The notes under the pieces: generated by a model | What the model saw: the letters and a program-made list of their open reading frames with translations, nothing else | What the model was told of the DNA's origin: nothing | The model's database searches: none | Translations under genes and position numbers: made by a program | In this document: positions 16,653 to 26,897 of the stretch, piece by piece | Layout: each line of letters begins with the position of its first letter | How positions within the stretch are numbered: the stretch's first letter is position 1 | Source: an uncultured Gammaproteobacteria bacterium | Lineage (GTDB): Bacteria; Pseudomonadota; Gammaproteobacteria; GCF-002020875 | DNA length: 64,000 bases | Assembly (NCBI GenBank): GCA_963981015.1 | Contig: CAXCCG010000001.1 | Location: forward strand, 12,560 to 76,559 | Direction: 5' to 3'

Positions 16653-17675
16653 TCAGCTCTTACGACAGACATCCAGTGCCTGCAATAGTGCCGGAAAACT
16701 GATTCTCTCCTGTTCCAGCCTCAGATTGGTTGCGTGGCTGTGGTTGAGCAGCTGCTGATAGAGCCGCTGTTCCTCCTCATTGAGATACCTCAACATACGT
16801 TGGGTAGGGTGCTGCTCACGGCCCCAGAACTGGCGATGCAGCAGCAGTATCTGACGATCCATCAGCATCGATCGGGCCTGTGGAAGGTAGTGTCGAATCT
16901 GGTCCAGCATGGCAAAACCATGGGTATCGATGTCTCCCCAGTAGTAAATTTCTGATGCTTTCAGCCATAGCACCTGTTGCAGCGGTTGCAGTCCATAACC
17001 CAGACCGAAGATCACCAAACTCTTTGAATATTCAGGAAAGACCAATCCGTTAATCTCATTTTCTGTAATAAAGACTGTTTCAACACCAAGATCGAGTACT
17101 GCAAACTCTTCAACCGAAAGAGTCAGATCAGAAAGACCGGAGAGCCGGAGTGCTGGATCAAGAATACGAAAGCGGATCAGCAGAGGCTTACTACGCAATC
17201 CATAGCGTGACTCAAACCCCTTGATACCGGTGTATTCACTATTGATTGCTGTTGCTGGAAGAGTCTGGTCGAGCAGCTCCGTCAGAACCTTGCGATGCTG
17301 TTCAATAAATTTGGTATCGATCTGAGCAAGATCAATTTGACGCAGGTAGATTCCCGCTTGCGGGTGGCTAAGAAACCACTCGATAACGGTGATAATGCTC
17401 TCCCACTGTTGATGATGCAGAAGGATTTTGTGGGGATAGCGAATGACCCAGTCACGCAGTTGCGGAAAGTGCTCCAGCAGACGGGAGGCATCGTACTGAA
17501 AACGCTCAGCCTCGCCAAGCTTGCCAATCATGCGCAACAGCGCCTCTTCACTCTCGAAACAGATGCTCTGCGGAATCCTATTTTCACCAATCTGCCGATG
17601 CTGGACTGTTTTCCACTGAATAGAGCATTCTCTCCTTTTCTCCATCTTCTGCAGCTGCTGAATCCAGCTACGCAC
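16653..17675 (-). CDS. jetD: Wadjet/Mks JetD (MksG) toprim-domain nuclease subunit (DUF2220-like); N-terminus uncertain
   Basis: 340 aa from a GTG start. Toprim catalytic glutamate FITENE and metal site YYWGDIDTHGFAML resemble Topo VI-A/JetD. The reading frame stays open a further 74 codons upstream (to 17897) but has no start codon there. Confidence 0.75.
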   Translation of the reverse strand: MRSWIQQLQKMEKRRECSIQWKTVQHRQIGENRIPQSICFESEEALLRMIGKLGEAERFQYDASRLLEHFPQLRDWVIRYPHKILLHHQQWESIITVIEWFLSHPQAGIYLRQIDLAQIDTKFIEQHRKVLTELLDQTLPATAINSEYTGIKGFESRYGLRSKPLLIRFRILDPALRLSGLSDLTLSVEEFAVLDLGVETVFITENEINGLVFPEYSKSLVIFGLGYGLQPLQQVLWLKASEIYYWGDIDTHGFAMLDQIRHYLPQARSMLMDRQILLLHRQFWGREQHPTQRMLRYLNEEEQRLYQQLLNHSHATNLRLEQERISFPALLQALDVCRKS

Positions 17676-17836
17676 CTCATCAAATGACTCCCCTAATGCA
17701 TGACTATTGGGCCCCTTCAGGCGCAGACACCAGGGGAATAGCGATTCATTACCATCAACCTGTGCAGCAAGAAAGAGTCCTTGTTGCCACCGTTTCAGCA
17801 GAATCTTGCGGATCTCATCCGGGGTAGTCCATGGGG

Positions 17837-24096: not shown

Positions 24097-24104
24097 GGAA
24101 GTGG

Positions 24105-26897
24105 TTACCCATCCATCAGCATCGTCTGCAAGGTAACTCCGATCTCCTCAATCAGTATACTGCCACTTGTCAGCATCTCACCCCCACACCCCTGTGGAGG
24201 CATTTCTGTAAACTGCTCTACAAAGGTGATACACGCCTCTGGCAAACGGGTATCACTGATCTGTTCAACAGCTACGGCACCGAGCAGCAGTTTAACCCCC
24301 TGCTCCACAGTCTGAGTCAGCGGGGCCAACGCCTCCTGCTCAAAGCCTCCATCAAACAGTAGCTGTGCCATTTTCAGCGGACGCTCCACCTCGACCAATT
24401 GCTGCTGTGCCTGTTGAATCTGTTTGCGACGCTGTTCTCGCTCACGTTTCTGATCTGCTTTATCATCGGGCAGCAGTTGTGAGATTGCGCCATTAAGGGT
24501 GATGGCACCCGCGTCAGCCAACCGCTTGAGTAGCGCCAGCGCCTCTGGATCCAACAGCTCAACCGACTGAACAGCCGACTGTAACCCCTCTTTAACGGTA
24601 GCTTGTTGCGAAGGTGGTGCAACGGCAACGATAGTTTTGTTGCCCTCCCGGTTCTCCACTTCGGTCACCGCTCTACCCAGGCCCGGCGCACGCGCCTCGA
24701 CCTCCTGCTGTAGCTGTTGTAGTGGTGATACCTCTTCAGGTGGTTGCTGACCTTCCAAGCTTGCCGGGCGCTCCTCCATCAAAGCCTCAAGCCGCTCCAG
24801 CAGTGCTCCTCGACCGGAGGGAAGCTCCATCTCGGTAGGTCCAGTACCATCTAGCACTCCGTCAGCAAGTGCCTTTTTCTGGCTGAGAATATGCAGAATA
24901 CGGTGCTCAATCGAATTTTCACAGACCAGATTGATCACCTGTACCGCCCGTTTTTGGTGCTTTCTCCAAGCACGGGCAATACGCTGCTCCAACTTGGCAG
25001 GGTTCCACGGCAGGTCAACATTGATCACGATATTGGCCACCTGCAAGTTGAGTCCGGTAGCCCCAGCATCGGAGGTGAGGAAGAGACGACACTCTGGGTC
25101 TTTCTTGAAACGGTTGATCTCATCGCGGCGCTTTTTCTGATGAACTGCACCAGTGTGGAGAGCGTACTCAATTCCATTCTGCGTTGCCATCTCCTGAATC
25201 AGCTCCAGCATCCGTGTCCACTCCGAGAAGAGAATCACTTTATTGGGTTGTGTACCCGGCTCCGGCTCTGCAAACAGTTCACTGAAGATCTTTTTCAGCT
25301 CATCCAGTTTAGGGGAGACACGGCAGTCAGGATCGAGAATATAGGGGGTATCACAGAGCATACGCATACAAGCAAGCTTGGCCTGCAGATTTTTGAACTC
25401 ATCCGGCTTCAGCGGACGGCGTTTGGCAATCTGCATAATACGAGCGACCTGCATCTGATATTCGTCATATCGGGTCACCTGCTCCCCGTCCATCTCCACA
25501 AAATAGGTGTTGATGGTGCGATCCGGCAACTCCCCCTCTACCTCATGTTTTCTACGTCGCAACAAGATTGGTTGCAGACGACGATGGAGAGCATCAAGAT
25601 TTCGCACCCCCTGAGGACGACCACGCTCATCAAGCTGATAGAAGTCACGATTGAAGCGAAACAGTGGACCGAACAGATGGGGGTTGATGGCCTGGGCGAT
25701 GGAGTAGATCTCATCAATCCGGTTCTCCAGTGGAGTCCCTGTCAACACAAACAGAAAAGGGCTATTCAGCGCCTTGACCGCATTGGCGGTCTTGGTTTGC
25801 CAATTCTTGATACGCTGCGCCTCATCCAGAATAATCAGGTCTGGGGCAAGGGTGTCTTGCAACTCCTCTCCGTCATAGAGTACCTGTTCGTAGTTGGCGA
25901 GGTAGAAGAAGTGGTTCTGCCGATAGAGTCGCAAACGATCCGCCCGATTGCCCTGAACAATCAGAGTTGAGCGATTCGTGAACTTCTCAATCTGCTCCTC
26001 CCACTCTGTCTTCAGTGAGACCGGCGATAGCACCAGCACTCGCTCAATACGGTGAGTCTGTGCCAGCAACTCAGCTGCTGCAATGGCCTGAACCGTTTTT
26101 CCCAGCCCCATCTCATCAGCAAGGATCGCCCGACCACTAAAAGCCAGATGGAGCGCTCCCTGTTGTTGGTAGTCATAAAGAGGCAGGTTAACCAGATCGA
26201 GACTGCGCTTGCCAACGGCTACATCCTTCAGAAAATGGCTACGCACCTGTTTGCGTTGCTCTTCGTTACGTAACTGCTTCAACCATGGTTCAATCAAGGA
26301 TGAGATGCGTACCATACCGCGACTACGCGCAGGCAGCTCATCCATGAGCTGCTGAATTGCAGCCATACCGGTTAGTGGGGCAGCCAGTAGCTCGCTGTTC
26401 TCCGAAAAATAGGGGGAGAGCTGTTGAAAGAGCTTACTGTTTCTACCCAAACGCTCCGGCCAGAGGACACGAATTTGTGGCTGTGGTTGTTTATGTGGGG
26501 CATCTGTCTCCGCAATACGCCGGTCAAGCCAGATCTCAATCCGGGGCCGGGTTGGAGCTTGTCGCTGAAACAGCACCGCTTCAATATGTTTACAAGTCCC
26601 GAGACCATTCGTCTCAAAGTCACGGCAGCTACAGCTATTGATGGTGTGTTGAAGTGCACGCAGCTCAATCTGGTAGTGTGCACCTCCTTCAGTGGTCAAC
26701 TGCCACTCTCCACGAGCAACATCAATCGACTCTAGGTGATACTCTTCTTTACGCGCACGCTGTCGCCGCCGTTCAATCTCCTCAGCATCCGTGGTAAGCC
26801 AGCCGATTCCGGTGGAGAGTTGTTGCTTTCTGGTCTTGTTTTTATTCATAGTTAGCGCCCTGAAACTTTTCCCAGAACAGGAAAAGAGACAAATCAT
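24105..26897 (-). CDS. SWIM zinc-finger / SNF2-family helicase (likely start at MNKNKTRKQ, 26849)
   Basis: 930 aa; SWIM motif NSCSCRDF..GTCKHIEAV; SNF2 motif I ILADEMGLGKTVQAIAA, DEAQRIKN box, helicase C with QRIARAWRKHQKR; ~280 aa Q/A/E-rich C-terminal extension. Confidence 0.88.
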   Translation of the reverse strand: MICLFSCSGKSFRALTMNKNKTRKQQLSTGIGWLTTDAEEIERRRQRARKEEYHLESIDVARGEWQLTTEGGAHYQIELRALQHTINSCSCRDFETNGLGTCKHIEAVLFQRQAPTRPRIEIWLDRRIAETDAPHKQPQPQIRVLWPERLGRNSKLFQQLSPYFSENSELLAAPLTGMAAIQQLMDELPARSRGMVRISSLIEPWLKQLRNEEQRKQVRSHFLKDVAVGKRSLDLVNLPLYDYQQQGALHLAFSGRAILADEMGLGKTVQAIAAAELLAQTHRIERVLVLSPVSLKTEWEEQIEKFTNRSTLIVQGNRADRLRLYRQNHFFYLANYEQVLYDGEELQDTLAPDLIILDEAQRIKNWQTKTANAVKALNSPFLFVLTGTPLENRIDEIYSIAQAINPHLFGPLFRFNRDFYQLDERGRPQGVRNLDALHRRLQPILLRRRKHEVEGELPDRTINTYFVEMDGEQVTRYDEYQMQVARIMQIAKRRPLKPDEFKNLQAKLACMRMLCDTPYILDPDCRVSPKLDELKKIFSELFAEPEPGTQPNKVILFSEWTRMLELIQEMATQNGIEYALHTGAVHQKKRRDEINRFKKDPECRLFLTSDAGATGLNLQVANIVINVDLPWNPAKLEQRIARAWRKHQKRAVQVINLVCENSIEHRILHILSQKKALADGVLDGTGPTEMELPSGRGALLERLEALMEERPASLEGQQPPEEVSPLQQLQQEVEARAPGLGRAVTEVENREGNKTIVAVAPPSQQATVKEGLQSAVQSVELLDPEALALLKRLADAGAITLNGAISQLLPDDKADQKREREQRRKQIQQAQQQLVEVERPLKMAQLLFDGGFEQEALAPLTQTVEQGVKLLLGAVAVEQISDTRLPEACITFVEQFTEMPPQGCGGEMLTSGSILIEEIGVTLQTMLMDG

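Follow-up and report, generated by a model that had tools for sequence, protein, structure and literature searches.

A type I Wadjet operon adjoined by a SWIM-SNF2 helicase gene and other apparently separable additions in a defence islet of an uncultured gammaproteobacterium

The stretch of DNA described here, 64,000 nucleotides (nt) of contig CAXCCG010000001.1 from an uncultured bacterium of a marine gammaproteobacterial lineage (hereafter the window), carries between recJ and carA a defence islet of about 11 kb with the four jet genes of a Wadjet system and, directly upstream of jetA, a gene for a SWIM-SNF2 helicase. Of the SMC-based systems of DNA immunity, Wadjet, described as a set of four genes, is the one understood best; in Wadjet systems studied elsewhere small circular DNA is sensed by JetABC, an SMC-type loop extruder, and cut by JetD, a Toprim nuclease. 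From the comparison of genes it appears reasonably probable that the islet holds a complete, canonical type I Wadjet packed together with separable add-ons, and that the SNF2 helicase is not obligatory for it. The core is a known type I Wadjet, while the conserved six-gene layout, the recurrent adjacency of SNF2 genes and the odd start of jetD are new here. The literature searched (Wadjet with SNF2 or helicase; TOTE) yielded no description of the SNF2-Wadjet combination, and published descriptions of Wadjet comprise four genes only (PMC10586767).

At the level of profiles and motifs all four Jet proteins are confirmed as type I Wadjet, as had been proposed in a preliminary description of the window made from the letters alone. 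JetA matches DUF3375 with 532 bits (Pfam cut-off 28.6) and the PADLOC model JetA1 with 728 bits over 478 of 480 positions. JetB matches DUF4194 (147 bits), MksE (69 bits) and the PADLOC model JetB1 (289 bits); GTG 22403 is the start chosen by its homologues and by the gene calls on identical contigs. JetC matches PADLOC JetC1 over its full length (1577 bits) as well as AAA_29 and SbcC_Walker_B, and a Walker A motif GSGKST and a Walker B motif VVIDEAF are read in its translation. JetD scores 184 bits with JetD_C and 140 bits with DUF3322 in Pfam and 414 bits with JetD1 in PADLOC, and its translation contains the Toprim residues ITENE and GDIDTHG. The order jetA-B-C-D is kept on one strand, and two elements interrupt it: a spacer of some 250 nt parts jetA from jetB, and a 179-codon gene (orf179) separates jetC from jetD. 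The statement that these genes follow each other without breaks holds for jetB and jetC, which overlap by 4 nt, and does not hold for jetA and jetB. Related jetA genes occur on 38 plasmid records of PLSDB.

The helicase gene and jetA lie on the minus strand with 8 nt between them (stop 24105-24107, jetA ATG 24096-24094), in agreement with the earlier account. The helicase matches SNF2-rel_dom with 144 bits and Helicase_C with 83 bits in Pfam, and the ATPase motifs GLGKT, DEAQ, TGTPLEN and QRIARAWR are intact in its translation. Its naming as a SWIM protein is backed by a CxC...CxH motif (CSC..CKH, CSCRDFETNGLGTCKH), but the Pfam score for SWIM is borderline: the whole protein gets 17.1 bits, and its N-terminal piece 19.6 bits, which just equals the gathering cut-off. 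Gene callers put the start at MNKNKTRK, which gives 914 amino acids (aa), and Met17 of the open reading frame (ORF) is probably the true start. The protein reaches no NCBIfam equivalog cut-off (100-140 bits versus 500-1500 required). The PADLOC models for DpdE, ZorD and DrmD match the helicase core only, and the N-terminal SWIM region and a C-terminal region of 240 aa are family-specific. Plasmids gave only core matches of 30-33% to other helicases, and the family is therefore taken to be absent from PLSDB.

Because only 8 nt part the SNF2 gene from jetA and no terminator-like site was seen at their junction, the two are here probably co-transcribed, the promoter and terminator scan as a whole giving counts not above those of shuffled sequences. 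Tight spacing alone is uninformative on shared function, because a pair of MNT and HEPN genes sits equally close (7 nt) to jetD. The arrangement is shared by relatives of the window. An identical block was seen on contigs from many samples, and loci L008 and L009 have the same eight genes at the same recJ/carA site (SNF2 85%, JetA 88% and orf179 82% identity), with a SNF2-jetA gap of 7 nt. In an uncultured Piscirickettsiaceae metagenome-assembled genome (L011-L015; SNF2 73%, JetA 77% and small ORF 72% identity) the SNF2 gene, jetABC, the small ORF and jetD occupy another chromosomal site, flanked by a parC-like gene and by radical-SAM/moaA/hemCD genes; in L011 a ParE/Phd pair on the opposite strand (3836-4401) parts the SNF2 gene from jetA. 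The neighbourhood search proposed in the preliminary description thus found the SNF2-Wadjet block in L008 and, with the ParE/Phd insert, in L011, and Wadjet next to SNF2 genes of unrelated lineages as well, not in the window only.

Outside this clade both partners are found apart. The SNF2 gene of P0048 (77% identical) has no Wadjet and is followed by an AEP-TOTE/DEAD helicase gene and a RecQ-like gene, that of P0049 (75% identical) stands without Wadjet, alone among housekeeping genes, and that of L016 (61% identical) has no Wadjet within 10 kb. In a small tree the Wadjet-linked SNF2 genes are, with weak support, not monophyletic with respect to P0048 and P0049. Wadjet operons with JetA at 70% (L095), 67% (L097) and 66% identity (L096), and at 56% on a Thiodictyon plasmid and a Ralstonia megaplasmid, are without an adjoining SNF2 gene of the window family. 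When obligatory linkage was tested, the SNF2-jetA linkage was kept only in the clade of the window, L008 and L011 and not across the relatives of both partners. Since both partners exist apart, the combination is not to be filed as a new obligate system. The phrase that the SNF2 gene is fused into the Wadjet operon has therefore to be dropped; of the proposed undescribed co-operonic variant, the co-oriented block recurring in relatives at 85% and 73% SNF2 identity stands, without the linkage being obligatory.

Two candidates for further cases were rejected. A helicase convergent with jetD on the Thiodictyon plasmid turned out to belong to type III restriction-modification, as its res subunit, and a SWIM-SNF2 protein of L096, encoded 7.7 kb from jetA, belongs to another family (35% core identity) and has housekeeping genes between it and jetA. 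The L096 operon has HicAB, ParE/antitoxin and TPR genes inserted between jetB and jetC (12179-13890).

The SNF2 family as a whole is very large: over 8000 candidate proteins were scored, with a length of about 930 aa and identities mostly of 45-55%. For a species-level set one genome per species was scanned, which gave 80 loci, and Wadjet genes near these were detected by tblastn with the Jet proteins of the window. An AEP-TOTE primase-helicase lies within a few kb of the SNF2 gene in 11 of the 80 loci, in several clades, versus five loci with Wadjet. The 141 immediate neighbours, from 79 species-level loci, include AEP-TOTE (5), JetD (3) and JetA (1), AbiEi (3), GNAT (3), ParE, PIN, DUF4143/AAA_14 and DpdF (2 each), a mixed set of conflict genes with no universal partner. 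The Wadjet-adjacent SNF2 proteins share no residue signature beyond that of random sets of six. As a separate observation, genes of the family are repeatedly found just upstream of an AEP-TOTE primase/DEAD helicase of about 700-850 aa (L102, 5149-12540, and 11 of the loci L015-L094, for example L028, L045 and L088), followed in L102 by a RecQ-like helicase; this may be a distinct multi-helicase conflict system, of which the literature searched gave no description.

Several results from this wider set and from the literature weigh against a helicase that is merely an add-on. Wadjet directly or nearly adjoins the SNF2 gene in those five loci in at least five SNF2 clades and in three orientations. 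The two are in tandem in L015 (SNF2 upstream of jetA, with the toxin-antitoxin insert between them), in the Hyphomicrobiaceae locus L079 (SNF2, 57 nt, then jetA-B-C) and in L076 (jetD, then SNF2), and convergent in L020 and L052, where the 3' ends of SNF2 and jetD overlap or are 155 nt apart. Identity to the window is 53% for SNF2 and 25% for JetC in L020, versus 47% and 52% in L079, and because these similarities are incongruent the pairing must have arisen repeatedly. If Wadjet is present in about 5-10% of genomes, a rough estimate gives fewer than 0.01 cases expected in 80 SNF2 loci under random placement, and the observed adjacency is far above it. No methyltransferase family is in the list of the top 25 neighbours of the SNF2 family, whereas with simple co-residence in islands one would expect restriction-modification genes as commoner neighbours. 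Finally, in ietHAS, reported in 2026, a SNF2 helicase was acquired by ietAS and is essential there (PMC13069673).

A rival reading is that the SWIM-SNF2 protein is a genuine accessory component of Wadjet in the window clade and facultative elsewhere, hence a functional partnership; we regard this as possible, at a clearly lower level of confidence. As a DNA translocase such a component could clear protein roadblocks, load or feed DNA to JetABC, or extend restriction to substrates poorly handled by the four genes. The junctions of 8 and 7 nt in the window and L008 with no terminator-like site between the genes, a block held together at two chromosomal sites with about equal divergence of SNF2 and Jet proteins, the fact that SNF2 genes came to lie immediately beside unrelated Wadjet lineages repeatedly and independently, and the ietAS precedent (PMC13069673) all speak for it, but they have to be set against SNF2 relatives at 75-77% that are intact without Wadjet and against the closest outside relatives of this Wadjet, which do without SNF2. 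The opposite-strand toxin-antitoxin pair splits SNF2 from jetA in L011, the convergent layout rules out co-transcription in two loci, the SNF2 sequences carry no Wadjet-specific signature, and the family is found more often beside TOTE-like primase-helicases than beside Wadjet (11 versus 5 of 80). These points favour the reading of a canonical Wadjet with separable additions, for which toxin-antitoxin cassettes that invade other Wadjet operons are also counted; the Wadjet operons of these bacteria seem able to accommodate small inserts of this kind.

The second addition, orf179, starts 14 nt past jetC and has no family match in Pfam, PADLOC or NCBIfam. The architecture of its product consists of a three-helix N-domain and two Tudor/SH3-like beta-barrels; a fold search of BFVD gave only barrel matches with low TM-scores, and a search of viral contigs three weak matches. 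The family has 1314 representatives at E < 0.001, all standalone proteins of about 130-330 aa, and fusions to JetD were absent among 1.84 billion representatives. The family members at 83 other loci, with 44-88% identity to the P0020 branch, never adjoin jet genes or SNF2; next to them lie PIN/MazE toxin-antitoxin genes, PRiA4_ORF3, resolvase, DUF1186/SEC-C and an RQC-domain protein. Since the family is standalone and without Wadjet neighbours elsewhere, orf179 is read as a small gene of the accessory genome that looks to have been captured once between jetC and jetD and retained in at least five lineages. Loci L098 and L101 are two further lineages with the order jetC-orf179-jetD, whereas in the operons of L097 and of the Thiodictyon and Ralstonia plasmids (L187 being among these), all complete through jetD, jetC runs directly into jetD. 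The protein ends in a disordered tail, RIIDM(E/G)xQQSLL, whose sequence is conserved within the Wadjet-embedded branch and not outside it.

Behind orf179 the start of jetD is unusual. The ORF first listed, which the preliminary description took as the whole JetD, matches the profiles only from position 49 (Pfam DUF3322) or 57 (PADLOC) and is cut off at its N-terminus. The frame is open upstream to 17898 and encodes a normal JetD N-terminus, PWTTPDEIRKILLKRWQQG (PWTTPDEIRK...), with which the solved JetD of E. coli (8q72) can be aligned from residue 3 onward, but no ATG, GTG or TTG lies in the frame ahead of GTG 17675 (codon 53). Conservation of the coding frame sets in near the W codon (17831-17829). 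Over the 52 start-less N-terminal codons the ratio of nonsynonymous to synonymous divergence (dN/dS) is 0.14 at a dS of about 1.5, on par with the rest of the gene (0.17), and these codons are therefore held to be translated. In L011 the small ORF ends 13 nt ahead of a normal jetD ATG (MSEWSNP...). In the window, L008, L098 and L101 an ATG is found 4 nt past the orf179-type stop, exactly where the start is expected; it shares bases with the JetD W codon, is shifted by one base from the jetD frame (cATGG) and opens a mini-ORF of four to five codons to TGA (MDYPG*, MEYP*, MDYSG* and MEHP* in the four lineages). A canonical start in the jetD frame is absent from all four, save a TTG eleven codons past the W codon in L008 only. 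The corresponding regions are 17815-17900 (minus) in the window, 10497-10660 in L008, 4528-4688 in L098 and 1090-1253 in L101.

Two candidate modes of initiation emerge from these alignments. JetD could be made by a +1 shift from the out-of-frame ATG (17832-17830 in the window); the mini-ORF frame is itself +1 relative to orf179, and a further +1 shift is needed to reach jetD. CCC_TGA is a classical shift-prone site, and the mini-ORF ends in CCC_TGA in L008 and L101 and in CCC_GGA_TGA in the window, while L098 is without an obvious slippery codon. The other candidate is initiation at an in-frame ATC (17849-17847); all four lineages have it seven codons upstream of the W codon, preceded at a distance of 8 nt by a G-rich Shine-Dalgarno-like element. 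For a -1 shift from orf179, no conserved slippery heptamer was seen by eye at the orf179 end in the window and its relatives, and RNAalifold gave no covariation-supported structure around the jetD start.

A bolder interpretation, which we consider rather doubtful, is a six-gene Wadjet variant made of SNF2, JetA, JetB, JetC, a Tudor/SH3-like adaptor and JetD, in which the SNF2 protein, recurrently recruited as a functional partner, would widen or license DNA restriction, and in which recoding or non-canonical initiation, linked to the inserted gene, would throttle jetD expression. It is improbable that the SNF2 gene is instead a vertically inherited chromosomal gene flanking an integration hotspot, beside which Wadjet and other defence cassettes land. 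The SNF2 tree broadly tracks taxonomy, varied mobile conflict genes are neighbours in either orientation, P0049 lies among housekeeping genes and the SNF2 and JetC similarities are incongruent, as such an anchor gene would lead one to find; the flanks of SNF2, however, differ in every close relative (recJ, parC-like, ahpC/transketolase, DUF302), the islet is not marked by an integrase, tRNA gene or repeat, and the family is not universal. That the operon is decaying, so that after gene insertion and loss of the start codon jetD is no longer made, is very improbable: the jetD frame without ATG, GTG or TTG before codon 53, the foreign gene between jetC and jetD and the 250-nt jetA-jetB spacer would fit, but the start-less codons evolve under the same constraint as the rest of jetD (dN/dS 0.14 at dS of about 1.5), the arrangement is kept in four diverged lineages, and jetD has no internal stops and all its motifs intact.

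The jetA-jetB spacer measures 154 nt to the start of the longest jetB ORF and about 250 nt to GTG 22403, whereas the L008 relative, with a JetA 88% identical, has only 22 nt between the two genes. A second copy was found neither in the window nor in the compared loci, and Rfam gave no match to it. The spacer appears specific to the window lineage and might hold an internal promoter or a small RNA. The MNT and HEPN genes, which overlap by 17 nt, carry on the tight string of genes past jetD; they are found in L008 and not in L011, and the pair is taken as a separate module.

The coordinates of all features are given in Table 1. The genes from SNF2 to HEPN form one string on the minus strand in the interval between recJ and carA. 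Both flanks are housekeeping genes, with ftsH, rlmE, greA and carAB on one side and recJ, thrC and hom on the other, so that the defence genes stand as an islet. Neither an integrase nor a tRNA gene nor a repeat was found to mark it, the sole tRNA gene being at 3288-3372. A search of Rfam gave zero matches within 15600-27400, and a megablast search of the 11-kb region against E. coli genomes and PLSDB plasmids gave no match. Between recJ and the SNF2 gene lies an ORF for a very acidic protein of 82 aa on the plus strand (26945-27193), and a gene of 82 aa is called at the same position in L008.

Table 1. Genes and other features of the defence islet (positions in the window)
Feature	Position	Strand	Remarks
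SWIM-SNF2 helicase	24105..26897	minus	930-aa ORF; probable real start Met17 at 26849, 914 aa
jetA (kleisin-like, DUF3375)	22654..24096	minus	480 aa
Non-coding spacer, ~250 nt	22404..22653	minus	jetA-jetB interval
jetB (KITE/MksE-like, DUF4194)	21783..22403	minus	~206 aa; longest ORF reaches 22499
jetC (SMC-like ATPase)	18391..21786	minus	1131 aa
orf179	17837..18376	minus	179 aa, jetC-jetD interval
Mini-ORF ATG GAC TAC CCC GGA TGA	17815..17832	minus	4 nt past orf179 stop
jetD (DUF3322 + Toprim JetD_C)	16653..17849	minus	ORF list gives 16653-17675, 340 aa
MNT	16295-16645	minus	NTP_transf_2 40 bits
HEPN	15916-16311	minus	HEPN 79 bits

For a canonical Wadjet with separable additions, function would be divided as follows. 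By analogy with the systems studied elsewhere, JetABC would sense small circular DNA by loop extrusion and JetD would cut it. SNF2, orf179 and MNT-HEPN would be three genetically separable add-ons on the same strand, of which the SNF2 protein probably acts as an autonomous ATP-driven DNA translocase; it would at most complement or assist Wadjet and would not be a stoichiometric fifth subunit, although the two are possibly synergistic. A helicase that repeatedly and independently touches Wadjet operons would be a cheap, testable lead, which could bear on how loop-extruding nucleases deal with DNA that is non-circular or covered by protein, or on whether defence genes lying side by side act in synergy. 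In the start-less jetD behind an inserted gene, translational coupling, near-cognate initiation or +1 frameshifting could be studied in a small natural setting.

Among known systems ietHAS (PMC13069673) likewise combines a known defence system with a SNF2-family helicase gene in the same cluster; there the helicase is essential by mutation, whereas the window is compared by genes alone and both of its partners are found apart. DrmD of DISARM, ZorD of Zorya, DpdE of Dpd and BrxHI/II of BREX match the ATPase core of the SNF2 protein (residues ~236-690) at 140-228 bits. The likeness is confined to this core, NCBIfam scores fall well short of all equivalog cut-offs, and profile searches did not find the partner genes of these systems between recJ and carA. 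TOTE-like systems share the same SWIM-SNF2 family, which lies near AEP-TOTE in 11 of the 80 loci and in the 77%-identical P0048, whereas the AEP-TOTE gene is absent from the window. The MNT-HEPN pair consists, like other toxin-antitoxin systems of this type, of a minimal nucleotidyltransferase and a HEPN protein encoded by overlapping genes, and differs from them in being appended 7 nt past jetD in the same string of genes. With type I Wadjet of E. coli GF4-3, P. aeruginosa (JetABCD) and Corynebacterium (MksBEFG) the window shares the same four families, which are arranged A-B-C-D and match the PADLOC type 1 models over their full length, and its JetD aligns to the solved JetD/MksG structures 8q72, 7til and 8b7f. 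Unlike type I Wadjet elsewhere, it has a conserved 179-aa gene between jetC and jetD, a jetD without an in-frame canonical start and some 250 nt of spacer ahead of jetB, and the operon is flanked by a SWIM-SNF2 gene at 8 nt on its upstream side and by an MNT-HEPN pair at 7 nt on the other.

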